A stretch of DNA of 64,000 nucleotides, taken from the NCBI GenBank assembly GCA_021787985.1, contig JAJYLG010000001.1:50163-114162 (forward strand), written 5' to 3'. Positions 18,716 through 50,470 of this stretch are shown here, one piece after another (position 1 is the first letter of the stretch; each line of letters begins with the position of its first letter). Under the pieces are notes generated by a model. The model had not been told where the DNA came from, did not search any database, and saw nothing but the letters and a program-made list of their open reading frames with translations. The position numbers were made by a program, and so were the translations under genes. The stretch comes from Chloroflexota bacterium. GTDB taxonomy: Bacteria > Chloroflexota > Dehalococcoidia > DSGV01.

Positions 18716-19342
18716 CTACGTTGCCAGCAGCCAGTCGACGACGCGCCGGTACTGCGCAAGCGGCACCTCGCCGACAACGCGAACGGCGCCGGCCGCGTCG
18801 GCGAGCAGCACCGTCGGCACCGCGGTGATGCCGCGTGTCTGAGCCTCGATGAAGTCGGCGAGCACCGCTGCCCGCTGTGTGCCCTCGTCGAGGTCGCGCT
18901 GGAAGCCCGCCACGTCCAGCCCCGCGCTGTCGGCCACCTGGATGAGCACGTCTCGCTGTGAGATGTCCCGGTTGAGCTCGAAGTAGGCGCGCAGCAGCGC
19001 CTCGTGGTAGCGAGCGAATGCTTCTGCACCCTGCCGCTCGGCGCACTTTCCGGCCTCCAGGGCCGGCAGGCTGTGTGAGGGCATGTCGCGGTCGTCGGGC
19101 CACGGGTGGAAGGTGACGCCATCCGGCGCGCCCATCTCTGCGGCCATTCGCCAGGACTCGCGCGTGTGGTCGTCGGGGCGACGGCCCTCGGCCTCAGGCT
19201 CAGGTCGCAGCGGGTAGGCTTTCCACGTGACGTTCACGCTTCCCGCGTACGTGTGCGTGATCTTGCGCAGACGAACCGCCGCGTTGTAGCACCACGGTCA
19301 GAGGTAATCCGAGTACGCGGTGACGATGACTGGCCCAGCCAT
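18716..19342 (-). CDS. DsbA/FrnE-like thiol-disulfide oxidoreductase with in-frame TGA (predicted selenocysteine, UPWC motif)
   Basis: Translation from ATG 19340-19342 reads MAGPVIVTAYSDYL-TGA(19298-19300)-PWCYNAAVRLRKI.... The TGA sits where DsbA/FrnE proteins have the first Cys of CPWC. The downstream ORF 18716..19237 is in the same frame and continues a DsbA fold (...GITAVPTVLL...). A GAGG RBS is present. A hairpin lies 14 nt after the TGA. Confidence 0.7.
19266..19283 (-). other. SECIS-like stem-loop downstream of the DsbA-like TGA
   Basis: The mRNA forms CGCGG-CGGUUCGU-CUGCG (5 bp stem including a G-U pair, loop with GGUU), starting 14 nt after the UGA. Confidence 0.35.
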
Positions 19343-23599: not shown

Positions 23600-24688
23600 C
23601 TACTCGCGCAAGTCCGCGACGCGCGCGACCGGCGTTCCGTCCCGTCGGCACAGCGCCCGCGTCACCGGACGCGTCTGGTCCCCGAACGTGGGTTGCCAGC
23701 TACTGTGCTTGCCGGCGCCTCCTACCACGATGACGGAGATCGCCTCCGGCGCATCTGCGATGGGCACCATCGTGTCATCTCGGTCTGGGAGCCCATTGCG
23801 GTGCGCCAGGAAGGCCCGGTACTCGGGGCCGAGGCGTCCCAACGGGAACCGTGCCTGCTCGAACAGGAACTGCTTCACCGTGCGCTTCGAGAACCCGTCC
23901 CGGGCAAGCGTGGCGGCGTGCTCTGGCCCCAGGCTCAGCAGCGGCCAGCCACGGCCGAGGAGATTGTTGCTTCCGGCCTCGCCCATGGCGCCCGCGATCA
24001 GGTGGAGGATGCCGATCCCGGTGGTGCTGTAATGGTCCTGAATGTTGTGCGGGCCCTCGCAGCCGAAGACGGTCACCGTGCTGGTGTCTGGCGCGAACCC
24101 GCGCTCGACGTGCAGCGGCTCCCAGGGATTTTGCTCTTCGTTTTCGGCCACGCAGTAGGCGATCTTTGCCGGGTTCCCTTGAGTGGCGCGATCGCCGCGA
24201 CCGGGCAGCCCTCCGCCGATGTTCATCAGGATGAGGCGCATGGCTCTGCCGATCGTTGCGTTCGCGCGAAAGCCCTGGCCGAACGCGTTGTAACCGGCAT
24301 TGATGCTGAGCTCGCGCGCGACTGGCCCGTTGACGACGACCAATGGCGCGACCGGGTGGGTTGTCGCCTGGATCGAGTCGATGTTGAACGCCGGGTCGGC
24401 GATCGCCTCCACTGCCGCGATCACGACCGGTAGGAATTCCGGCCGGCAGCCCGCCATGGCCGCGTTGATCGCGATCCTTTCCACCGTGGCCTCGCCCTGC
24501 CTCGGAGGCAGCACCGCGACGACCTCCTGGCGATCCCGGTCTGTCCAGCCGAGGAGCTCCTCGACGAGGTCCTCGGTGGGCGGCACGATCGGCAGGCCGT
24601 CGGTCCAGCCGCGTTCTTGGTAGAGCTCGTTGATCGCTCGATACGAGTCCTCGACGCGCAGCGTCCGGGCCGCCGCTCCGTCAGCCAC
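23600..24688 (-). CDS. Uncharacterised conserved protein, UGSC-associated partner A (paralog of 31116..32156)
   Basis: It shares N-terminal ...GWTDGLPIVPPTE... and a central ...GQGFRANATIGRAMRLILMNIGGGLPG... block with the paralog. The GTG start (second GTG, 24686-24688) lies 6 nt after a GGGAGGGA RBS and overlaps the UGSC-A stop by 8 nt. Confidence 0.65.
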   Translation of the reverse strand: MADGAAARTLRVEDSYRAINELYQERGWTDGLPIVPPTEDLVEELLGWTDRDRQEVVAVLPPRQGEATVERIAINAAMAGCRPEFLPVVIAAVEAIADPAFNIDSIQATTHPVAPLVVVNGPVARELSINAGYNAFGQGFRANATIGRAMRLILMNIGGGLPGRGDRATQGNPAKIAYCVAENEEQNPWEPLHVERGFAPDTSTVTVFGCEGPHNIQDHYSTTGIGILHLIAGAMGEAGSNNLLGRGWPLLSLGPEHAATLARDGFSKRTVKQFLFEQARFPLGRLGPEYRAFLAHRNGLPDRDDTMVPIADAPEAISVIVVGGAGKHSSWQPTFGDQTRPVTRALCRRDGTPVARVADLRE

Positions 24689-25256
24689 GCTCACTCCCTC
24701 CCTGAACGCCCGGAGCTGGCAGCGGCACGGCGGCGCTCACCGCTGTTGCCACCGCATCGGCGAGGTCCTTCGCCTTCGCCACCACCTCCTCCTCGGGGAT
24801 GCCCCCCAGCGGGTGCTGCGTGAGCGCGATCGGAAGCTCGGGCAGGCCGCGGTTCCGCGCCTCGAGCCGTGCGAGGGCCTGGAACTCGTCCGTACCGACC
24901 ACTACGGTAGGAACTCCCTGCTTCTCGAGCAGGATGGCGCCGTGGATACTCCACGACGTGCACGACCCTCAGTCCGCGCTGCCCACGATGACGAAGTCGC
25001 ACGTCATCAGGTCAGCCAGCACGTCCGGGGGAGGCGGTCCGGCGATGGGCTTCTCCCGCTTCAACACTTCGCGTATGCCGTGAAGCTCCTGCAGCCGCTT
25101 GGCGACCGACAGCATGAGGATGTCCGCGTTCGGCTTGCCGTTGTCCAGGATCCCGACGCGCGCGCCGGCGAGGCTGTCCAGTCGCGGCGCCAGCCTGACG
25201 GAGGCCACCTTGGGTTCGGCCGTCGGGTCATAAACTCTCGTCCAACGCTCGGTCAT
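24681..25256 (-). CDS. UGSC-motif small selenoprotein A (in-frame TGA at 24969-24971)
   Basis: Starts at ATG 25254-25256 with an AAGGGAG RBS. The ORFs 24969..25295 and 24681..24902 are in one frame and joined by a TGA: ...DFVIVGSAD-U-GSCTSWSIHGAILLEKQGVPTVVVGTDEF.... The paralog 32176..32718 has a TGA at the same aligned position. Confidence 0.7.
24939..24957 (-). other. SECIS-like stem-loop downstream of the UGSC-A TGA
   Basis: The mRNA forms GUCGUGG-AGUAU-CCACGGC (7 bp stem, 5-nt loop with GU), starting 11 nt after the UGA. Confidence 0.45.
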
Positions 25257-31115: not shown

Positions 31116-32156
31116 TCACGGCGCCACCGCCAGGTCACGCACGACGGCCGAGGTCATTTGTGTGTCTCCAAAGTTCGAGCAGACCGTGACGTGATACGGC
31201 TCGTCCCCGCCCGCCACGACCAGCACGATGTCTTCCGGCTGGGCGGCGACGGCATGCTCTTCCGAGATGGCGCGGCGCTCGGGGCGGCCGCCCAGGGCCT
31301 GGATCTCGTCCGGGAAGCGCGACCGCGGCACCTTCGCGTGCTCGTACAGCCATTCCTTGGTGCGCTGCTTGTCGTAGCCCTGGCTCTGGAGCAGATTGGC
31401 GTGGCCGTAGCTCATGATCACCAGCGGATTCCCGTGCTGGAACTCGACGTTGTTGGCGCCCACCTGCCCGAGCGTGTCCGCCACCGCCAGCAGCACGCTC
31501 TCCGCCTTCTTGTAGATGGCGAGGACGTTGGCCGTCCCGATCGCCCCGACGCAGGTAACGACACTCTCGTTCGCAGCGAAACCTCGTTCGACGTGCAGCG
31601 GGGGCCACGGGCTGCGCTCCTCGTCCTCGCCGAAGCAGAACGTGTACTTCCCCGGCATCCCGTGCAGCGCCTGGTCCACGGTGCCGGGAGCGGCGCCACC
31701 GATGTGCAGCATGCAGAGGCGGACCGCCCGCCCGATCGTGGCGTTCGCGCGCCAGCCGGGGCCGAGCAGCCCGCGCTGGCAGTTGATGCCGATCGTGCGT
31801 CGTATCGGCCCGTTGACGATGATGGCGGGTCCAACGGGATTGGTCGTGGTCTGGATGCCGTGGAGGTTGAAATCGGGGATCGCCAGCGCCTCGACCGCGG
31901 CGATAACCGTCGACATGTACTCCGGCAGGCAGCCCGCCATCACCGCGTTGGCCGCGATCGTCTCGATGGTGGCCGCGCCCCCCGCCGGGTCGAGGTAGGC
32001 GATGAGCTCGTCCGGCGGGCGTGCGGTCGCCGCCACCATGGCCGCGACCCGCTCCTCCGTCGGGGGTATCAGGGGCAGTCCGTCTCCCCAGCCCTGGGCC
32101 TGGGCGTAGTCCAACCACCCATCGAGTGAGTCCGGGACCTCTCGAACGGTAGCCAC
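31116..32156 (-). CDS. Uncharacterised conserved protein, UGSC-associated partner B (paralog of 23600..24688)
   Basis: Contains ...GWGDGLPLIPPTEE... and ...GPGWRANATIGRAVRLCMLHIGGAAPG.... It has a GTG start 20 nt after the UGSC-B stop. Confidence 0.65.
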   Translation of the reverse strand: MATVREVPDSLDGWLDYAQAQGWGDGLPLIPPTEERVAAMVAATARPPDELIAYLDPAGGAATIETIAANAVMAGCLPEYMSTVIAAVEALAIPDFNLHGIQTTTNPVGPAIIVNGPIRRTIGINCQRGLLGPGWRANATIGRAVRLCMLHIGGAAPGTVDQALHGMPGKYTFCFGEDEERSPWPPLHVERGFAANESVVTCVGAIGTANVLAIYKKAESVLLAVADTLGQVGANNVEFQHGNPLVIMSYGHANLLQSQGYDKQRTKEWLYEHAKVPRSRFPDEIQALGGRPERRAISEEHAVAAQPEDIVLVVAGGDEPYHVTVCSNFGDTQMTSAVVRDLAVAP

Positions 32157-32175
32157 AATGCCGCAGACGACCTCC

Positions 32176-32718
32176 TTACGCTTCCAGCGGGCGCGGCGCC
32201 GCCACTTTGGCGACCACGTCGTCGATCGCGTTCCTGATCACGCCGCGCGAGCTCTCGGTGTCGCCGAACTCGGTTACCTCGGTTGGCGGAAGCACCACCA
32301 TCGGGGAGCTGCTCGCCCCCTTACCCTTGAACGTGACCGTGGCGAGGTTGACGAACCGCTCGGTCACCAGTACCACGGACGGGATGCCCCGTCGAATCAG
32401 CTCGATCGTGTCGTGGACACTCCACGCGGTGCAGGACCCTCAGTTGGCGAGCCCCACGATGGCGATGTCGGCGTTCTCCGTCGCCTGTTGGAGCACGGCC
32501 TCCGACGCGGCGGCGGCGATGGGCACCTCGAACTCGAGGACCTGCGCGACGCCGAACTCATTGACCAGCGTGCCGCGCATCTCGTCGACCAGCTTGTTCA
32601 TGCTCTGCCAGCCGTTGTTGAGAAAGACGACGGACTTGCCCCGCAGGTCTTGCGGGGCGAACTCCGCGGTCACTCGGGTCGCACGAAACGCACCAGCCGT
32701 CGGTTCTACGATCCGCAT
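32176..32718 (-). CDS. UGSC-motif small selenoprotein B (in-frame TGA at ~32440-32442)
   Basis: Starts at ATG 32716-32718 with a GGGAGAAACAC RBS. ORFs 32440..32718 and 32176..32376 are in the same frame: ...DIAIVGLAN-U-GSCTAWSVHDTIELIRRGIPSVVLVTERF.... This is the same architecture as UGSC-A. Confidence 0.7.
32411..32425 (-). other. SECIS-like stem-loop downstream of the UGSC-B TGA
   Basis: The mRNA forms CGUGG-AGUGU-CCACG, 14 nt after the UGA. It is near-identical in shape to the UGSC-A hairpin (loop AGUGU versus AGUAU). Confidence 0.4.
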
Positions 32719-42429: not shown

Positions 42430-42556
42430 GAGCGCGCGCGCCCACGCCCACCGTCACTCCCGCGCGCCCGCCGTCATTCCCGCGAAGCCTGCCCCCGCGG
42501 AGGCGGGGGGCGGGAATCCAGCATCGAGCGGCCTTCTCCCCGCCCTGGATTCCGGC
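42430..42556. repeat. Structured intergenic repeat, copy B (inverted relative to copy A), plus an adjacent GGAATCCAG/CTGGATTCC hairpin
   Basis: Tandem CCCACCGTCACTCCCGCG / CCCGCCGTCATTCCCGCG units are followed by CATTCCCGCGAAGCCTGCCCCCGCGGAGGCGGGGGGCGGGAATCCAG. Confidence 0.6.
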
Positions 42557-42570
42557 TCGCGCTCGCGTCC

Positions 42571-42645
42571 GCTCGCCAGGATGCTGGGCTACGACGAGGC
42601 GGACGTGGACTGGCTGCCGTCCGCCGAGGCGGAGTCCTTGGCGAC
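42571..42645 (+). pseudogene. ~75-nt fragment duplicating an internal segment of the ArsM-like methyltransferase gene (45012-45086)
   Basis: ~90% nucleotide identity. It translates to LARMLGYDEADVDWLPSAEAESLA versus LARMLGYDEADLDRLPSAVAESFA in the full gene. Confidence 0.5.
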
Positions 42646-42945
42646 CGCGGATGCGGCGCCCGGGAGAATGAAAGATTTCTCCCTATGGTCTGTCGGGCTT
42701 GACAGCATTATGAACGTTTCGTATGATTCTCTCTGTCCGAGCGCGTGCCAGACGGCGCTGCTCGGAGGGGACGTCGGATGCGCCCTGCGTCGCGCTGTCG
42801 GCTTTGCGCTACACCGTTCGAAGGTCCAGGCGGTTGGGTCAACCGAGTGTTCCGTCGCGTGACGCGCTTCCGTAAGAATCCCAACATCTGCACAACGTGA
42901 AACGAACTTACGCCCCTGGGTCAGGGGCAGCGGCGCACAGTCAGC

Positions 42946-43485
42946 GTGCTCTTCGCTGACTGCCGCGGCTTTTCCGCCCTCGTCGAGAGCTACCCGGCTG
43001 AAGAAGTGGTCCGGGTGCTCAACCGCTTTTTCCAAGCCGCCACCGACGTATTGCTGGCCCACGATGCCTGTATCGACAAGCTCATGGGAGACCAGCTCAT
43101 GGCCGTGTTCGGTGCCCCGATTGTGCGGCCGGACCACGCAGACCAGGCCGTCGAGGCCGCGGTCGAGATACAGACGGCGATGACGGAGTTGTTTCCCCGC
43201 GGGGGAGAGCCGCGCCTCCGGATCGGCATCGCCATCAACAGCGGCGTGGCTCTGGTGGGCAACCTGGGCTCTCGCGAGTTCAAGGACTTCACGGCCATCG
43301 GCGACGTGGTCAATCTGGGCGCCCACCTTCAGGAGCAGGCAGGACCTGGCGAGGTGCTCGTTACCGAGGCAACCACAGGGATGCTGGCGAAGCAGCCGGA
43401 CCACGCCGCGGGGCGAGTCGTGGCCGTCAAGGGTCGAGCTGAGCCAGTGCGGGTAACGGCCCTCGTGTTTCCGGAAGGCACTTGA
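42946..43485 (+). CDS. Class III adenylate/guanylate cyclase catalytic (CHD) domain protein
   Basis: Contains ...RRTVSVLFADCRGFSALVESY... and ...IGIAINSGVALVGNLGSREFKDFTAIGDVVNLGAHL.... It has a GTG start at 42946 (a CTG further upstream is also possible). No other domains. Confidence 0.6.
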   Translation: MLFADCRGFSALVESYPAEEVVRVLNRFFQAATDVLLAHDACIDKLMGDQLMAVFGAPIVRPDHADQAVEAAVEIQTAMTELFPRGGEPRLRIGIAINSGVALVGNLGSREFKDFTAIGDVVNLGAHLQEQAGPGEVLVTEATTGMLAKQPDHAAGRVVAVKGRAEPVRVTALVFPEGT

Positions 43486-44177
43486 TGGCCCCGGTCACGC
43501 CGCTGCTGCGGGTCCCCCTGTTCGCGGGGCTGCGTCCGCCCGAGCTGGAGGAGATCGCGCGGCGGCTGGTCCCGCGCCTCTATCGGCGGGGCCAGGTGGT
43601 CTTTCACCAGGGAGACCCCGGCGGCTGCCTCTACATCATTGAGCGCGGAAGCGTGAAGGTCTCCCTTCTGTCGGAGACGGGAGAGGAAGCGCTGCTCGCA
43701 ATCATGGGCGCCGGCGACTTCTTCGGCGAGCTGGCGTTGATCGACGGTCAACCCAGATCGGCCACCGTGATCGCCCTGGCAGACACGCGTGCCTGCACGC
43801 TTGACCACCAGAGCTTCCTCGCCTTCTTCGGGGCCTCGCCCGAGGCTGCCGTCGCGGTCTGCGGCGCCTTGGCGGCTCGGCTGCGCCAGATGAACCAGCG
43901 TTTCGCCGAGGTCATCTCCCTTGATCTGCCCGGACGACTGGCCAAGTGCCTGCTCGAGCTGGCGGAGCGGAACGGCGAGGCGGTGGCCGAGGGAGTGGCG
44001 TTCGAGCTGCCGCTCAGCCAGAGGGAGATAGGGGAGCTGGTGGGGGCGTCGCGCCAAAGCGTCAATCGCGCGCTCGCCCAGTGGGAACACCTGGGACTCT
44101 TACGACGACGCCACCGCCGCATCGTCCTCGTCCGTCCGGACGCCCTGCAACGGCGCATCGTGCCACGGCTGTCGTAA
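43485..44177 (+). CDS. Crp/Fnr-family transcriptional regulator
   Basis: Has a cNMP-binding domain (...FFGELALIDGQPRSATVIA...) and a C-terminal HTH (...SQREIGELVGASRQSVNRAL...). The ATG overlaps the upstream stop (TGATG). Confidence 0.8.
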   Translation: MAPVTPLLRVPLFAGLRPPELEEIARRLVPRLYRRGQVVFHQGDPGGCLYIIERGSVKVSLLSETGEEALLAIMGAGDFFGELALIDGQPRSATVIALADTRACTLDHQSFLAFFGASPEAAVAVCGALAARLRQMNQRFAEVISLDLPGRLAKCLLELAERNGEAVAEGVAFELPLSQREIGELVGASRQSVNRALAQWEHLGLLRRRHRRIVLVRPDALQRRIVPRLS

Positions 44178-44280
44178 AGATGACACCTCAAGTGTCTCGC
44201 CGACGCTACTCGCGCGGTCGGGCGGCGAGGCGTAATGAAGACGCTTGATCATAAGCACTCGCGCAACGGGGAGGACAGCG

Positions 44281-44838
44281 ATGACGACAACCATCAACCG
44301 CAACGGCATCAACATCGATCAGCTCATGCAGACGATTGAGGCCATCCGCCAGGACCCGGAGCTGGCGCGGTTCCAGTTCCGGGCACACAGCGAGTGGCAA
44401 GGCGGCGCACGCTCCGCTACCAGGATTCAGGGTTTCTATGGCGCCGGCCAAGAGGACAGCTCGCGTTCGCGGCCGTTCGAGGTCGGTGGGGACGAGCCGC
44501 CGCTGCTCCTGGGCACGGACACGGCTCCCAACGCGGTGGAGACGGTGCTGGCGGCCCTCGCCTCCTGCCTGACAGTGGGCTACGTCTACAACGCCGCGGC
44601 GCAGGGCGTCAAGATCGAGTCGCTGGACTTCGACCTGGAGGGCGATGCGGACCTGCGGGGCTTCCTGGGCCTGTCGGAGACGGTCCGGCCGGGGTTCGGC
44701 GGGATCCGGCTCACCTACCGCGTGAAGGCAGATGCACCTCGCGAGAAGCTCGAAGAGCTATGCGAGTACGTTCAACGCACCTCACCGGTGCTGGATATCA
44801 TCCGCAATCCTGTGCCGGTGTCGATCGAACTGCGGTAG
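44281..44838 (+). CDS. OsmC/Ohr-family protein
   Basis: Contains ...FRAHSEWQGGARSATRIQGFYGAGQ... and ...LAALASCLTVGYVYNAAAQGVKIESL.... A GGGGAGGA RBS precedes it. Confidence 0.75.
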   Translation: MTTTINRNGINIDQLMQTIEAIRQDPELARFQFRAHSEWQGGARSATRIQGFYGAGQEDSSRSRPFEVGGDEPPLLLGTDTAPNAVETVLAALASCLTVGYVYNAAAQGVKIESLDFDLEGDADLRGFLGLSETVRPGFGGIRLTYRVKADAPREKLEELCEYVQRTSPVLDIIRNPVPVSIELR

Positions 44839-44885
44839 GCCGGCGCGGGCCAGGGCAGGACGTCGAGAATCGGGAGGCGAGCGGG

Positions 44886-45857
44886 ATGAGAGGACGACTC
44901 CAGGCGGCGCTGGTCGACCGCGACGCGCTTCGGTCTCAGATCCGGGACAAGTACACGGTGGTGGCCCTCGAACCGCAGACGGGCTTCCATTTCCACACGG
45001 GCCGGCCGCTCGCCAGGATGCTCGGCTACGACGAGGCGGACCTGGACCGGCTGCCGTCCGCCGTGGCGGAGTCCTTCGCCGGCACGGGCAACCCGTTCGC
45101 CTTCGGACGGCTGGCGGAAGGCGAGGTGGTCGTCGACATCGGGTGCGGCGCCGGGTTCGACACCTTGTTGGCGGCTGGGCAGGTCGGGCCACGGGGCCGA
45201 GTCATTGCCGTGGACATGACCCCCGCCATGCTCGACAAGGCCGCCGCGGGCGCCCTGGTCCTCAACCTCCGCAACGTCGAGGTACGCCACGGCGTTGCGG
45301 AGGAGCTGCCGGTGCCCAGTCAATCGGCCGACGTTGTCATCAGCAACGGCGTCATGAATCTGTGCCCGGACAAGCTCGCGGCCATGCGCGAGGTCCGCCG
45401 TGTGCTGCGGCCAGGCGGGCGTTTCCAGATCGGCGACCTGGTCGTGCACCAGGAGGTGCCACAGGACGCGAAGGACGACATCGACCTGTGGTCCGGCTGA
45501 ATCGCCGGGGCTCTGCTGGAAGCAGAGTGGGACTGGGTCCTCAAGCACGCCGGGTTCATCGACGTGCGCTGGGGCCGCCAGGTGGATGTCTTCGCGGGCT
45601 CCAAGCACGAGTCCGACGCTCAGGAATTCGGTGCGCGTGGCGTCACGTTCGCTGGTAGGAGACCCATGCGGGCGGCCGACCCCGCGCCCGTGTGGGCGGA
45701 GCGCGACTCTGATGGCGGCCGCCGGTGCGCGGTCCCGGTCGCGTCGGCTGGCCAGCAGCCAGGCCCTTCGTGTGGTAAGATGCAGTCACGGGGACGAAAG
45801 GGCTCGACAGGGGCCGGCGTGCTCGGGTTGCAGGCCGAGGTGCCATCAACCTCGTAA
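44886..45857 (+). CDS. ArsM-like SAM-dependent methyltransferase with in-frame TGA (45498-45500) at the conserved catalytic Cys position. Predicted selenoprotein; 3' end uncertain.
   Basis: Contains a GCGAG SAM motif (VVDIGCGAGFDTLL) and ...VVISNGVMNLCPDK.... Around the TGA it reads DIDLWSG-TGA-IAGALLEAEWDWVLKHAGFIDVRW..., and typical ArsM sequence continues in frame after it. The nominal stop at 45855-45857 overlaps the tmRNA 5' end by ~68 nt. Confidence 0.55.
45511..45527 (+). other. SECIS-like stem-loop 10 nt downstream of the ArsM-like TGA
   Basis: CUCUGC-UGGAA-GCAGAG: a 6-bp stem with a 5-nt loop. Confidence 0.4.
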
Positions 45858-46143
45858 ATCAGGTGGCAAACAAGTAACTGGCGAACCACAACTCGCCCTC
45901 GCTGCCTAAGAGCTAGGCAGCCGTCCGCCACCGCCTCGTCCCGGTGGGTGGTGAACGGGCGACGCAATGCCGGGATGCCGCGCAGCGCTCGCTGACGACG
46001 CGCGCGAAAGATCAGTCAGCCCGCCCCGAAGGGACGCCGGCGGTAGCGGCCCGAGGGGCTCAAACAAAGTGCCGCAGAAGCCTGTGGATGCCCGGGGCGT
46101 ACGCTCACTGGACCGGGGGTTCAATTCCCCCGCGTCTCCACCA
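45790..46143 (+). ncRNA. ssrA: tmRNA (ssrA), tag peptide GEPQLALAA
   Basis: The 5' GGGGACG pairs with the 3' CGUCUCC-A-CCA. The T-arm is GGGGG-UUCAAUU-CCCCC. The tag ORF GGC GAA CCA CAA CTC GCC CTC GCT GCC TAA runs 45880-45909. It is followed by the hairpin CTGCCTAAGAGCTAGGCAG. Confidence 0.85.
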
Positions 46144-46310
46144 TCTCGATCAGACCGCCCGTCCGTCAGGACGGGCGTTCGTTTCCCGCGCGCCGCCTGC
46201 GCTCCCGCCGCCAGCGGCCGGGCAGCCCGCCTGATCTGCTCCCAAAGCCGTCCCGCGTTCGCCTGACAGGCGGGCGTGCCGCCACGTGACTGCCGGGCTA
46301 TGCTGCCGCC

Positions 46311-47198
46311 ATGGCACGGCGAAGACTCCACGTGCTCTGCGTGCACGGCATCGGCGGCGCACGGCCCGGCTTCTCCGATGGCCTGCGCGTGCGCGTCCGC
46401 CGACTCCTGGCGCGCGACCCGCGCGCTCGCGAGTGGGGGGCGCGACATCCGGATGTGGACTTGCTCGACTGGAGCGAGTACGTCTGGAGCGCGATCGGAG
46501 AGGAGCGAGAGCTTGGGCTGCTCCAAGCGCTCTATCCGGATCTGGCTGAGGACCGCCCGCCGCGACTGCTGCTCTGGGAGCTCATCGAGGGGATCCTGGG
46601 TGTCGGCCGCATGGGTGAGACGCGGCGGTCTCTCATCAAGCAGCTCGGCGACATCCTCGTGTATCTCTCTCCGACCGACGGGGAGCGCATCCGCGCCGGT
46701 CTGGCCAGCGCGATCACCGCGATCCGCGACCGCTGTGACCGCGAGGAGCCGGGTGTGGCGAGTTATGTCACGCTCATCGCCTACTCGCTCGGCGCCGTGA
46801 TCGCGTTCGACGTCGCCTACCGCTTCGCGCAGACCGGTGAGATGCGTGAGCACAGCGAGGGCCTCGAGCTCGGCAGCCTGGTCACGCTCGGCGCGCCGAT
46901 CGCCCTTTTCTCGCTCCTGCGCGGGCCCGCGTACGACCACTACCGTGACCGCCCCGTGCGGACGCGACCGGGCGGCCGCTGGGTCAACTGCCTCGACCCG
47001 CAGGACCTCGTCGCCTGGCCGATCCGGCCCCTTTACCCCGAGCTGCCCGGGCTCGAGGATCGTCCCGTTCGCACCGGCAACCTGGTGTCGGCCCACTCCG
47101 GCTACTGGCATAGCCGGGATGTGGCGCGCATCGTCGCGGGCTGCCTCAGCGCCGATCCGGGTATGAGCGCGGGAGCGGCCCCAGAGAGCGCCACATGA
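46311..47198 (+). CDS. Alpha/beta-hydrolase-like protein (DUF-type, lipase-like AYSLG nucleophile elbow)
   Basis: Reads MARRRLHVLCVHGIGG... then ...VTLIAYSLGAVIAFD.... The longer minus-strand ORF over it is antisense noise. Confidence 0.55.
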   Translation: MARRRLHVLCVHGIGGARPGFSDGLRVRVRRLLARDPRAREWGARHPDVDLLDWSEYVWSAIGEERELGLLQALYPDLAEDRPPRLLLWELIEGILGVGRMGETRRSLIKQLGDILVYLSPTDGERIRAGLASAITAIRDRCDREEPGVASYVTLIAYSLGAVIAFDVAYRFAQTGEMREHSEGLELGSLVTLGAPIALFSLLRGPAYDHYRDRPVRTRPGGRWVNCLDPQDLVAWPIRPLYPELPGLEDRPVRTGNLVSAHSGYWHSRDVARIVAGCLSADPGMSAGAAPESAT

Positions 47199-47234
47199 TA
47201 CCCTCGACCGTGGACTCCGAGGAGGAACGAACGG

Positions 47235-48680
47235 TTGTTCTCAGATACTGAGCCTCACCCACTCGAGCCCATCTTCCATCCGCGTTCCGTGGCCGTGGTC
47301 GGCGTGTCTGAGAAGAGCGGCGGGATGGGTGGCGGCGCGTTCGTCGATTCGCTGCTGGGCATGGGCTTCCCGCGTGAGCGTCTCTATCCGGTGCATCCGC
47401 GTGGCGGGGAGTTCCGCGGACTGACCGTCTATGCCTCGCTGCGCGAGATCCCGGGGCCGGTGGACTATGTCATCTCCAGCATCCCGGCGGCGGCCGTGCC
47501 GATGCTCGTCGATGAGGCCATCGCCAAGGACGTGAAGGCCATCCATTTCTTCACGGCCGGCTTCAGCGAGACCGGCGAGGAGGAACGCGAGGAGCTGGAA
47601 CGTGAGGTGCTGGAGAAGCTGACCGCGGCCGGGATCCGGGTGATCGGTCCGAACTGCATGGGCCTGTACGTTCCGCAATCGGGGCTTTCGTTCATGCGAG
47701 ACCTGCCGACCGAGCCCGGGCACGTGGCGATGGTCAGTCAGAGCGGAGCCAATGCGGGCGGGTTCGTGCGCTACGCCGGAGCGCGTGGCGTCCGCTTCTC
47801 CAAGGTGATCTCATACGGCAACGGTGCTCAGCTCACCGAGTCCGACTTCTTCGAGTACCTGGCGACGGACGCCGACACTCGGGCCGTCTTCGCCTACATC
47901 GAGGGTGTGCGGGACGGGCGGCGGTTCCTGCGTGCCGTACGGGCCTGCGCCGAGCGGGTGCCCGTCGTCATCCTCAAGGGTGGTCGCGGCGAAGCCGGCG
48001 CCCGCGCCGCGCGATCGCATACCGGCAGCCTCGCCGGCTCGTTGCAGGTCTTCGACGCGGCCTGCCGCCAGGCAGGCGCGCTGCGGGTCGAGGAGCTGGA
48101 CGAGTTGGTGGACCTCGCGGTGGCCGTGCAATTCGAAGCGCGGCCTGCCGGGCGGGGGGTCGCCGTGGTCGGTATGGGGGGAGGCACCTCGGTGCTCGCG
48201 GCCGACGAGGTCGACGCAGCCGGCCTCGATCTGCCCGTCATGCCGCAGGAGATCCAGGACGAGCTCCATACCTTCACCCCCCTCGCGGGGACATCCGTGC
48301 GCAACCCGATCGACAGCACGGCGCTGTTCCAAGCCGACGGTTTCCTGCGCACCTTCGAGCTGGCTGCTCGGCCCGAATCGGTGCACACGATCCTCTTCCA
48401 CGTCTCCTTCGGATGGGGACCGGCGATCCGGCCGGAAGACTATGTCCAGCGGATCGCGGACACCGCCGCCAATCTCCGCGACGCGCGCTCACGCGTCGGC
48501 GGCAAGCCGATTCTGGTGGCGGTCGACTCCCCAGTTACGGCCGAGGGCGCGGCGCACACCATCGATGCCATCCAGCGCGTCTCGGCCGACGGGTTCCCTA
48601 CCTTTGTCGGCATTCCGCGGGCGGCCCGCACGATCGCCGAGCTGGCGCGCCTCCAGGCGCTGCGTCGGCGCCAGGACTAG
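47235..48680 (+). CDS. Acetate--CoA ligase (ADP-forming) family protein, alpha-type CoA-binding plus ligase-CoA domains
   Basis: Contains ...RSVAVVGVSEKSGGMGG... then ...ITAGFSETGEEEREELEREVLEKLTAAGIRVIGPNCMGLY.... A TTG start at 47235 lies 9 nt after a GGAGGA RBS. Confidence 0.7.
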   Translation: MFSDTEPHPLEPIFHPRSVAVVGVSEKSGGMGGGAFVDSLLGMGFPRERLYPVHPRGGEFRGLTVYASLREIPGPVDYVISSIPAAAVPMLVDEAIAKDVKAIHFFTAGFSETGEEEREELEREVLEKLTAAGIRVIGPNCMGLYVPQSGLSFMRDLPTEPGHVAMVSQSGANAGGFVRYAGARGVRFSKVISYGNGAQLTESDFFEYLATDADTRAVFAYIEGVRDGRRFLRAVRACAERVPVVILKGGRGEAGARAARSHTGSLAGSLQVFDAACRQAGALRVEELDELVDLAVAVQFEARPAGRGVAVVGMGGGTSVLAADEVDAAGLDLPVMPQEIQDELHTFTPLAGTSVRNPIDSTALFQADGFLRTFELAARPESVHTILFHVSFGWGPAIRPEDYVQRIADTAANLRDARSRVGGKPILVAVDSPVTAEGAAHTIDAIQRVSADGFPTFVGIPRAARTIAELARLQALRRRQD

Positions 48681-50470
48681 CGGCGGCGGAACTCACGCTC
48701 CAGCGCGGTCGCCGGCACATGGACGACGGTCGGTCGCCCGTGCGGGCAGGTGCGCGGCTGCCGGCACGACTCCAGCGCCAGCACGATCTCGCGCATCTCG
48801 TCAAGCGAGAGCGACATGCCCGCCCGCACTGATGCGTGACAGGCGGCGGTCATCAGCGAGCGGTCGCGCCTGCGTGGCAGGTCGGGCTCCTCGGCCGCCA
48901 GCGCCCCCAGCTCGCTGAGGAGCTGCGACAGGTCTCGCTTGACCAGCGGCGCGGGCACCGCCCGCACCAACCAGGCGCCGCCGTCGAGGGGGTCGGCCTG
49001 TACGCCGACAGTCTCCAGCACACGCCTATCGGCAACCAGCGCGGCCGACGCGCCGGGCGAGAGCTGGCAAACCTGCGGCACCAGTAACGGCTGCAGATCC
49101 TCTCCCTCCGGCCTGGCGCAGAAGCGCTCGTACAGCACCCGCTCGTGGGCGGCGTGCTGGTCGATGAGGAACATCCCTTCCGGGCCCTCGGCGACGATGT
49201 AGGTGGCGCCAACCTGGCCGACGATGCGCAGCGGCGGCAGGGCCGGACCGGCGACTGGCGCGTCGCCGGCGCCGTTGGCGGACCGTGCCGGCGGCGGCCC
49301 CGCGGAGGCGGGGGGCGCGGCTGCCTCCCCCGGTGACCGGGCGTCCGCCGGAAGCTGGGGGACCGCCGGCTCTTCGAGCGGCAGTCGCGGCGCCCACGGA
49401 GGAGAAACGAGCCGCAGCGGCGCCGCATCGTCGCCCTCGAAGGTCTGCGCTCCGCCCGAGAGAAGGGCGCCGGCCGCCGGCACCGGGGCGGATCTGCTGA
49501 TGGCGGAGTGCGCTGCCGCCGTCAGGGCGGACAGCACGACGCGCTCGTCGCGGAAGCGCACGTCCGTCTTCGCGGGGTGCACGTTGACGTCCACTTCCTC
49601 GGGTGCGAGGCGCACGTCGAGCACGGCCAGCGGGTGCTGCCCCGTGGGTAGCCCGTCCTGGTATGCGCGCTCGATCGCGAAGAGTGGCGCGCGGCTGCTG
49701 ACCCAGCGGCCGTTGACAAAGACGGTCATGGCGCCGCGGGAGCCGCGCCAGGTGCCCGGCGGCGACACCAGCCCGGTCACGCGCACGCCGGGGGCTTCGA
49801 ACTCCACCGGCAGCAGGTGGTCGGCGGCCGAGCCGTAGAGCGCGCGACAGACGTCGCGCAGCTCGCCGCTGCCGTCCGTGCGCAACAGCAGGCGGCCATC
49901 GGACGTCAGCGTGAAGCGCACGTCCGGGCGGGACAGCGCCAGCCGGGTGACCACGCCCGCGACCGCGGCCGCCTCGGCCCCGGCCGAGCGCAGGAACTTG
50001 CGGCGCGCCGGCTGCGCGTGGAAGAGGCGCGTCATTCCGATATCGGTGCCGTGTGGCTTGCCCTCGCGCCCTCGGCCGAGCAGCTCGCCGCCAGCTATCC
50101 GGATCCACGCCGCTGCGAGCTGCTCGGCTGGCCGGGAGGAGCAGCGCACCTCGGCGGCGGCGGCGATGGCGGCGAGCGCCTCGCCGCGGAAGCCGAGCGT
50201 GGCGACGCGCGCCAGGTCCTCGATCGTGGATAATTTGCTGGTCGCGTGGCGGGCGAACGCGAGCTCCAGCTCGCCCTCGGGGATGCCGCAGCCGTCATCG
50301 ACGACGCGCAATCGTTCCGCACCGCCGCGCTGCATCTCGACGGTGACGCGCCGAGCCCCCGCGTCGAGCGAGTTCTCGACGAGCTCTTTCGCCACCGAAG
50401 CAGGCCGCTCGACGACTTCCCCGGCGGCGATCTGGCGGGAGACCTCGGGCGGCAGGCGCTGAATGGGCAT
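48677..50470 (-). CDS. mutL: DNA mismatch repair protein MutL
   Basis: From ATG 50468-50470 it reads MPIQRLPPEVSRQIAAGEVVERPASVAKELVENSLDAG..., the GHKL ATPase N-terminus. The stop overlaps the convergent upstream gene by 4 nt. Confidence 0.9.
   Translation of the reverse strand: MPIQRLPPEVSRQIAAGEVVERPASVAKELVENSLDAGARRVTVEMQRGGAERLRVVDDGCGIPEGELELAFARHATSKLSTIEDLARVATLGFRGEALAAIAAAAEVRCSSRPAEQLAAAWIRIAGGELLGRGREGKPHGTDIGMTRLFHAQPARRKFLRSAGAEAAAVAGVVTRLALSRPDVRFTLTSDGRLLLRTDGSGELRDVCRALYGSAADHLLPVEFEAPGVRVTGLVSPPGTWRGSRGAMTVFVNGRWVSSRAPLFAIERAYQDGLPTGQHPLAVLDVRLAPEEVDVNVHPAKTDVRFRDERVVLSALTAAAHSAISRSAPVPAAGALLSGGAQTFEGDDAAPLRLVSPPWAPRLPLEEPAVPQLPADARSPGEAAAPPASAGPPPARSANGAGDAPVAGPALPPLRIVGQVGATYIVAEGPEGMFLIDQHAAHERVLYERFCARPEGEDLQPLLVPQVCQLSPGASAALVADRRVLETVGVQADPLDGGAWLVRAVPAPLVKRDLSQLLSELGALAAEEPDLPRRRDRSLMTAACHASVRAGMSLSLDEMREIVLALESCRQPRTCPHGRPTVVHVPATALEREFRRR

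Follow-up and report, generated by a model that had tools for sequence, protein, structure and literature searches.

A probable selenocysteine-containing methyltransferase of the ArsM/AS3MT-like superfamily whose reading frame enters the ssrA gene in a Chloroflexota bacterium

The gene described here begins at position 44886 of a stretch of 64,000 nucleotides (hereafter the window) from a Chloroflexota bacterium (Dehalococcoidia, DSGV01; NCBI GenBank assembly GCA_021787985.1, contig JAJYLG010000001.1, positions 50,163 to 114,162 of the forward strand), and its reading frame is interrupted by a TGA codon. It very probably encodes a selenocysteine (Sec)-containing, S-adenosylmethionine (SAM)-dependent methyltransferase of the ArsM/AS3MT-like superfamily that has lost its normal stop codon and whose frame enters ssrA, the transfer-messenger RNA (tmRNA) gene. 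Sec at this column of ArsM/AS3MT proteins has been described since 2007, and the gene adds one more example. Less usual are the clade-wide absence of the other ArsM cysteines and the stop loss that carries the frame into ssrA. A Sec-containing ArsM/AS3MT family goes back to Fomenko et al. (2007, Science 315:387), and the fused ArsM selenoprotein models NF041537, NF041536 and NF047649 to Haft and Tolstoy (2025), both as cited in PMC13188914. The Sec-ArsM family with the motif UxxG counts, together with UGSC and DsbA-like proteins, among the known prokaryotic selenoproteins (PMC13188914, PMC9312934, PMC2398784), and NCBI curates several ArsM-type selenoprotein models.

On the forward strand, a Shine-Dalgarno-like GGGAGG (44872-44877) lies 8 nt 5' of an ATG start codon (44886-44888), both read from the sequence, and the first 204 codons (44886-45497) specify a SAM-binding Rossmann domain with the motif VVDIGCGAG. 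The frame then reads ...QDAKDDIDLWSG up to the in-frame TGA (45498-45500), which DIDLWSG directly precedes, and runs on into IAGALLEAEWDWVLKHAGFIDVRW..., which gives a predicted Sec-spanning peptide DIDLWSG-U-IAGALLEAEWDWVLK in which Sec205 would open the motif U-I-A-G, the known 'UxxG' form. A conserved C-terminal segment of 55 codons (45501-45665) ends in ...GVTFAGRRP (Pro260), and the first in-frame stop after the TGA is the TAA at 45855-45857. The GC content at codon positions 1, 2 and 3 is 0.75, 0.45 and 0.89 in the first 204 codons and 0.71, 0.49 and 0.80 in the 55 codons 3' of the TGA. Pfam assigns the protein to Methyltransf_31 (105 bits, E = 3.7e-30), with further matches to Methyltransf_25 and Methyltransf_11, and thereby to the class I SAM-binding Rossmann domain of ArsM/AS3MT. 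The public protein record holds the same 204 amino acids, i.e., the gene has been called as a truncated product. A search of a plasmid collection returned only distant methyltransferase/arsM matches, with 66-72% identity over parts of the gene.

The first-pass annotation had left open two readings of the TGA, either Sec or a very recent TGC-to-TGA inactivation, and the comparison with relatives strongly supports the first and refutes the second. A search of 5.8 billion proteins was made, of which the best 120 homologues were analysed. Exactly 204 amino acids long are 17 of these 120, namely the window's own protein and 16 others at 75-78% identity, which have therefore been called as cut at the same codon, and the nearest relatives among these best homologues (74-78% identity) are all of the TGA type. 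Cys-type homologues in the same search have about 261 amino acids and 62-71% identity. A scan of loci using one genome per species gave 80 loci (L003-L082), from metagenome-assembled genomes of Chloroflexota (Dehalococcoidia, Chloroflexia, Thermomicrobiales, Anaerolineae and Ktedonobacteria) and, beyond this phylum, of Gemmatimonadota, Acidobacteriota, KSB1, Latescibacterota, Polyangiaceae, Rhodospirillales and others. Of 78 homologous sites, 75 have TGA at this column and 3 have TGC, and wherever the codon is TGA, the reading frame extends beyond it into the conserved C-terminal segment.

The segment behind the TGA also evolves as coding sequence. In a comparison with 37 relatives, changes per codon at positions 1, 2 and 3 amount to 0.195, 0.123 and 0.452 for the 54 codons that follow the TGA (74% amino acid identity) and to 0.159, 0.117 and 0.394 for the 45 codons that precede it (79% identity). 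This third-position-biased change, with the same pattern up- and downstream of the TGA, indicates that the downstream segment is translated and under purifying selection. At the same time, TGA serves more often than any other codon as an ordinary stop in the window, where it ends 18 of 37 genes, which argues for site-specific recoding of this codon and not for a reassigned genetic code.

Directly behind the TGA lies a predicted bacterial selenocysteine insertion sequence (SECIS) hairpin (45510-45528, forward strand). Its core, already noticed in the first-pass annotation as a 6-bp stem (CTCTGC/GCAGAG) with a TGGAA loop beginning 10 nt after the TGA, is confirmed, and a G45510-U45528 pair extends it from 6 to 7 bp, so that the stem comprises 45510-45516 and 45522-45528 and the UGGAA loop 45517-45521. 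According to PMC13188914, the bacterial SECIS (bSECIS) model describes an apical loop of 3-9 nt with a G within its first two positions, a stem of 4-16 bp, a UGA-to-loop distance of 16-37 nt and a minimum free energy of -7.5 kcal/mol or lower. The SECIS prediction that the annotation had called for agrees with this model on all four bSECIS criteria: the window hairpin has a 5-nt loop with G at position 2, a 7-bp stem, a 16-nt spacing and, folded alone, a free energy of -10.3 kcal/mol. The loop U-G-G-A-A also fits the pattern N1-G-G-N-N2. Like the SECIS elements of the E. coli fdhF/fdnG type, the hairpin lies within the coding sequence directly 3' of the UGA and has a small loop with a G at position 2 followed by another G; it differs from them in that its sequence is unrelated and its 16-nt spacing is the shortest that the model allows.

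The hairpin is conserved with covariation across the relatives. An alignment of 74 distinct TGA sites, gap-free from -6 to +45 nt around the TGA, yields in RNAalifold a single helix, columns 19-25 with 31-37, which corresponds to 45510-45516 with 45522-45528, and 99.2% of the 518 cells are paired in the 74 sequences. Three pairs undergo compensatory change (G-C to C-G and U-G; U-A to C-G; C-G to G-C), none of 500 shuffles reaches any of the five pairing measures, and pairing falls to 19-50% when the partner is slid. Third positions of the stem codons are virtually fixed (GCT in 72, CTG in 71, GCA in 70 and GAG in 73 of the 74 sequences), and two of these codons, GCT and GCA, have T or A there though the third-position GC content of the gene is 0.89, while the flanking codons vary freely (Ile as ATC, ATT or ATA in 40, 26 and 8 sequences; Gly as GGT, GGC, GGG or GGA in 42, 25, 4 and 3). 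At the protein level, A-L-L-E-A-E follows U-I-A-G almost always in Sec-type genes, whereas the 99 Cys-type homologues have ALTQDEW, ALTRDEW, ALLDDEW and similar sequences, and ALLEAEW in none. The confinement of ALLEAEW to Sec-type genes is as predicted by an RNA constraint that is present in Sec forms only.

The position of the TGA within the protein gives it a functional context. The best matches among solved structures are the Chlamydomonas ArsM (5EVJ) and the Cyanidioschyzon ArsM (CmArsM; 4FR0, 4KW7), with alignments that span residues 11-229 (E = 6e-26 to 9e-24). As the first-pass annotation had proposed, the TGA falls on a conserved catalytic cysteine of ArsM, Cys224 of CmArsM in the alignment to PDB 4FR0/4KW7. 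The 99 Cys-type homologues carry C-I-A-G at the place of the TGA, so that the codon is paired with Cys both in these homologues and in CmArsM. In CmArsM, As(III) is bound by Cys174 and Cys224, with Cys72 and Cys44 assisting, and Cys72 (and Cys44) is required for the first methylation step of As(III). The further proposal of an ArsM enzyme with three As-binding cysteines holds for the Cys224 position, present as the predicted Sec205, and fails for the others: Cys72 corresponds to Thr66, with Thr in 117 of 117 family members, and Cys174 to Gly155, with Gly in 116 of 116 (both counted among the best 120 database homologues), while residues 1-85 of the window protein contain no cysteine at all, Cys44 being thus absent as well. 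Cys159 (in 'NLCPDK') was considered as a resolving partner of Sec and rejected, as the two do not co-vary: among Sec-type genes this column holds C, T, F, M, I, A, S or V, a cysteine at this position is also found in 15 Cys-type proteins, and the residue aligns with Ser179 of CmArsM and is unconserved in the clade. With Thr for Cys72, Gly for Cys174 and an unconserved Cys159, the canonical three-thiolate As(III) site cannot form, and on these alignments arsenite methylation by this clade is not established.

The family models point in the same direction. The label of arsenite methyltransferase is not upheld by the curated NCBIfam model for ArsM (NF008823, PRK11873 arsenite methyltransferase), in which the window protein scores 221.3 bits and three relatives 221-226 bits against a cut-off of 263. 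The best-scoring models for the window protein are ArsM/AhpD (237 bits, cut-off 510) and ArsM/DUF2284 (224 bits, cut-off 575), and the methyltransferase/UXPK-star model follows with 208 bits (cut-off 460). These models (NF041537, NF041536 and NF047649, respectively) share the UxxG site with the window protein, which stays far below their cut-offs and lacks AhpD, DUF2284 and a second Sec. With Sec-ArsM (NF008823) the window protein shares the fold, the Sec column U-x-x-G and a hairpin right after the UGA; it differs in having a core of about 260 amino acids without the C-terminal ArsM domain, in lacking equivalents of Cys72 and Cys174 and N-terminal cysteines, and in its 63-codon read-on into ssrA. 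With CmArsM (PDB 4FR0/4FS8/4KW7) and the Chlamydomonas ArsM (5EVJ) it has in common the Rossmann domain and the ...G-C/U-x-x-G-A-L segment, but of the CmArsM cysteines it keeps the Cys224 position only, as Sec.

The 3' end of the gene is the second unusual aspect. ARAGORN places ssrA on the forward strand at 45790-46143, with the tag GEPQLALAA, and Rfam assigns it to RF00023 with 120.5 bits against a gathering threshold of 47 (E = 7.7e-48) over the full model (1-374). The in-frame TAA was thus correctly located 68 nt inside the tmRNA, where it sits in the conserved CCUCGUAAA segment, and the open reading frame (ORF) overlaps ssrA by these 68 nt. Pro260 is encoded by CCC (45663-45665) and followed by an ATG codon instead of a stop, and an unconserved read-on of 63 codons plus the TAA (45666-45857) extends across the ssrA promoter and 68 nt into the tmRNA gene itself. 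Relatives end 0-12 codons past the conserved ...GVTF.G.KP, that is, past the equivalent of Pro260 (e.g., GVKPA-stop, ARKP-stop or GRKPGKT-stop; L108 has 10 extra C-terminal residues), so that of the two possibilities raised for this end, an overlap with ssrA or a different C-terminus, the overlap is real and the conserved protein nonetheless ends close to Pro260. Two relatives, L002 (10613-10890) and L107 (661-1000), are exceptions, having lost the usual stop after '..GVKA' and reading on for 40 and about 70 codons, respectively, with dissimilar tails. In L002, the TAG that ends the frame comes directly after a strong GC hairpin, through which the frame passes.

The tail of the window gene has a second-position GC content of 0.68-0.74, compared with 0.45 in the body, and consists of 60% Ala/Gly/Pro/Arg/Ser and 16% hydrophobic residues, compared with 41% and 32% in the body, values typical of GC-rich noncoding DNA that is translated as if it were coding. 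No relatives of the tail were found in the metagenome scan, and homology of the tail to the 'EAEW..ALAALSC' extension of relatives or to their TusA fusions was rejected (BLASTP E of 3 or higher). Adjacency to ssrA was likewise rejected as a family feature, since a tmRNA occurs in none of 60 relatives' loci; as far as these loci tell, the frame came to run into ssrA by a stop loss specific to this lineage, and the overlap is not a feature of the family. In DNA of about 69% GC, a single stop loss yields a long read-on, and the predicted 63-codon tail is most likely a by-product of such a loss that is tolerated because the C-terminus of the family accepts variable extensions.

The region between the conserved C-terminus and ssrA (45666-45789) is the ssrA upstream region. 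It contains, on the forward strand, an extended -10 element, TGgTAAGAT (45773-45781), 8 nt before the mature 5' end at G45790, which is a probable ssrA promoter element, and which was not picked up by a scan with a strict promoter consensus. Most of 17 metagenomic tmRNA loci with the same tag have TTGCAA-N17-TGCTATAAT about 13 nt 5' of the mature GGGG; the metagenomic tmRNA loci (L083-L101) carry the tags GEPQLALAA or GEPQFALAA, and the window by contrast has a poor -35. A terminator scan of the forward strand found no site between the methyltransferase gene and ssrA, and a single one downstream, a terminator-like hairpin with a 9-bp stem followed by a T-rich tail (46156-46177). This hairpin also gave a sub-threshold match to CRISPR-DR9 of Rfam.

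In the mechanism proposed for this gene, the UGA at 45498-45500 would be decoded as Sec, with the UGGAA hairpin acting as bacterial SECIS and recruiting, by analogy with E. coli, SelB-GTP-Sec-tRNA(Sec) to a ribosome with the UGA in its A site. By homology, Sec205 would then lie beside the methyl group of SAM and bind or attack the substrate. Because it occupies the place of Cys224 of CmArsM, a metalloid ligand next to the SAM methyl group, Sec205 is most likely a substrate-binding or nucleophilic active-site residue. Since the clade lacks the other ArsM cysteines, the enzyme probably acts on a soft metalloid or chalcogen species bound by a single selenolate, and not on As(III) bound by three thiolates. 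Following loss of the stop after the C-terminal '..KP', translation would cover 63 further codons, across the promoter region of ssrA, before it reached the TAA.

Additional support for Sec decoding comes from other genes of the window. Three further genes, all on the reverse strand, carry an in-frame TGA in a known selenoprotein context. The first of two UGSC genes (24681-25256) has its TGA at 24969-24971 in the motif GSAD-U-GSC; it scores 136.5 bits in NF041046 against a cut-off of 125, and its two halves match positions 2-92 and 94-170 of Pfam UGSC. The second (32176-32718; TGA 32440-32442, motif GLAN-U-GSC) matches Pfam UGSC with both halves and reaches 86.7 bits in NF041046, which is under the cut-off. 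In the DsbA-like thioredoxin-fold gene (18716-19342; TGA 19298-19300), the motif is SDYL-U-PWC, a known UxxC form, and the Pfam DSBA match begins right after the TGA, at profile position 11. Four such TGA genes per 64 kb offer, at the sequence level, strong indirect support for a working Sec system, and join the 75 of 78 TGA sites, the purifying selection downstream and the conserved hairpin as evidence for Sec.

Several observations weigh against this interpretation. No selA, selB, selD or tRNA-Sec gene occurs in record positions 40,774-123,033 (82 kb) of the 126,864-bp contig ena:ERZ27233565:k141_1339019. The proportion of 75 TGA codons in 78 sites is inflated by the use of a Sec-type N-terminus as query of the scan; the occurrence of the codon in so many relatives nonetheless excludes, on comparative grounds, a recent private mutation. 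No Rfam family, SECIS or other, matches the hairpin, the extra matches being sub-threshold noise. Finally, the fold of the single sequence is unremarkable (z = -1.64, with 14 of 200 shuffles folding as well), and the significance of the hairpin comes from its conservation across relatives and not from single-sequence stability.

Of the other explanations, the one that survives best leaves the Sec gene itself intact and concerns the fate of its mRNA. A read-through transcript would be cut by RNase P at 45790, leaving a stopless mRNA on which ribosomes would stall at the 3' end and whose product would be tagged by tmRNA and degraded; the enzyme would be compromised in this genome, and the gene would be either a natural substrate of trans-translation or a gene being lost. 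This scenario, which we consider unlikely, draws on the lack of any in-frame stop from 45501 to 45789, on the terminator scan, in which the sole forward-strand site lies after ssrA, and on RNase P cleavage at the mature 5' end of tmRNA, which is established knowledge; L002 likewise passes a strong hairpin before its first stop. It is, however, inferential throughout, ssrA apparently has its own promoter, so that read-through is not needed for tmRNA synthesis, and the gene has kept its catalytic motifs, Sec codon and SECIS intact, while the tails of 40-70 codons in L002 and L107 suggest that extensions are tolerated.

A more far-reaching reading, that the enzymes of this widespread clade are not ArsM but selenol-dependent methyltransferases that cooperate with sulfur or selenium relay proteins and methylate, for example, a persulfide, selenide or other chalcogen species bound to Sec205, and that the non-stop mRNA of the window gene is controlled by ssrA-mediated trans-translation, appears improbable as a whole. 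Its chalcogen part finds hints of a link to sulfur/selenium trafficking in the TusA, DsrE-like and DUF4395 neighbours or fusions of relatives. Two Sec-type relatives are fused to TusA (L043 10001-11077 and L050 63-1169; Pfam TusA, 41 bits), and among 76 relatives' loci (e.g., L003, L007 and L010), 8 have a DsrE/DsrF-like gene immediately upstream, 9 a DUF4395 gene immediately downstream and 14 a major facilitator superfamily (MFS) transporter nearby. A conserved neighbourhood was nevertheless rejected as a clue to function, because no family occurs in more than 14 of the 76 loci, and adjacency to an OsmC-like gene is unique to the window. Rhodanese and OsmC-like neighbours were noted as a further hint toward a chalcogen relay.

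That the UGA is a true terminator, so that the enzyme would have 204 residues and the downstream 55 codons would be a separate small gene or untranslated, is very improbable. Gene callers do give the 204-residue product for the window's own protein and 16 others, and TGA is the commonest ordinary stop in the window, but neither a start codon nor a ribosome-binding site follows the TGA, the downstream part continues the same frame without a gap and is homologous to the C-terminal portion of CmArsM and of Cys-type enzymes, and truncation would remove the Cys224 equivalent together with the rest of the fold. Still harder to sustain is a pseudogene, in which a recent TGC-to-TGA nonsense mutation has struck a Cys-type methyltransferase and the downstream frame is a leftover: Cys-type homologues do exist at 65-71% identity, sel genes were not seen in the 82 kb inspected and the lost normal stop could signal decay, but the TGA is common to the 75 sites across several phyla and to all of the nearest relatives, the sequence behind it is under purifying selection, and the hairpin shows compensatory changes and frozen synonymous sites. 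That the relatives acquired their TGA codons as independent nonsense mutations is excluded by the conservation of the hairpin and of the frame behind it. It is equally hard to credit that a sequencing or assembly error produced the TGA or removed a stop after 45665, for although the window derives from a metagenome assembly (contig k141_1339019), the Logan assembly of run SRR13170411 (L001, 7,657 nt) is 100% identical to window positions 42547-50203, which cover both sites, so that neither is one assembler's artefact, relatives conserve TGA at this codon, the ATG at 45666-45668 is more than one base change away from any stop, and neither shifted frame meets a stop within 14 codons.

For a Sec-containing methyltransferase, the practical consequences concern annotation above all. 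Gene callers cut the window protein and its relatives, at least 17 close ones in public databases, at residue 204 and thereby remove the active-site residue, and recognising the Sec codon restores the full-length enzyme. Together with the two UGSC genes and the DsbA-like gene, the gene would make for a rich selenoproteome in a Chloroflexota-like organism. As Sec is the one residue that the clade keeps while the other ArsM cysteines are absent, caution is advisable with arsenic-methylation marker labels in environmental surveys. The overlap with ssrA is a small curiosity, and one on which non-stop rescue might conveniently be tested in a naturally occurring gene.

Some further observations concern the relatives and the surroundings of the gene. 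In a subgroup of Sec-type proteins the C-terminus is extended by 'xxEAEWxxALAALSCxxP', which includes a conserved Cys; the subgroup comprises L043, L050, L040, L041, L044, L045, L047 and L049 and likewise L051, L056, L059, L063 and L067, and in L043 and L050 the extension leads into the TusA sulfurtransferase domain. L041 contains two paralogues 4 kb apart, and in one L041 copy and in L045 the extension ends in ...PI-TGA-TAA. In the window, a gene with a guanylate/adenylate cyclase domain, a Crp/Fnr-type regulator gene and an OsmC-like gene lie 5' of the methyltransferase gene on the same strand (42901-44838), in an arrangement specific to this genome, and the stop codon of the OsmC-like gene ends 47 nt before the methyltransferase ATG. 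OsmC-like proteins are a known selenoprotein family, and the copy in the window has Cys. Directly 3' of ssrA, an ORF of 295 amino acids (46311-47198, forward strand) without a Pfam match is coding-like, with a third-position GC content of 0.84.

The UGSC genes show similarities of their own. In the first copy, the UGA is followed at a distance of about 14 nt by a hairpin, CGUGGA-GUA-UCCACG, which that of the second copy, GUGGA-GUG-UCCAC, resembles. Each UGSC gene is followed by a gene for a protein of about 375 amino acids without a Pfam match (23600-24736 and 31116-32237, both on the reverse strand), and the two proteins share 42% identity (E = 3e-85), so that the arrangement looks like a duplicated cassette of UGSC plus an unknown protein. 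Both pairs lie within clusters of branched-chain-type ABC transporter genes, and one of them adjoins a DUF6282 gene.

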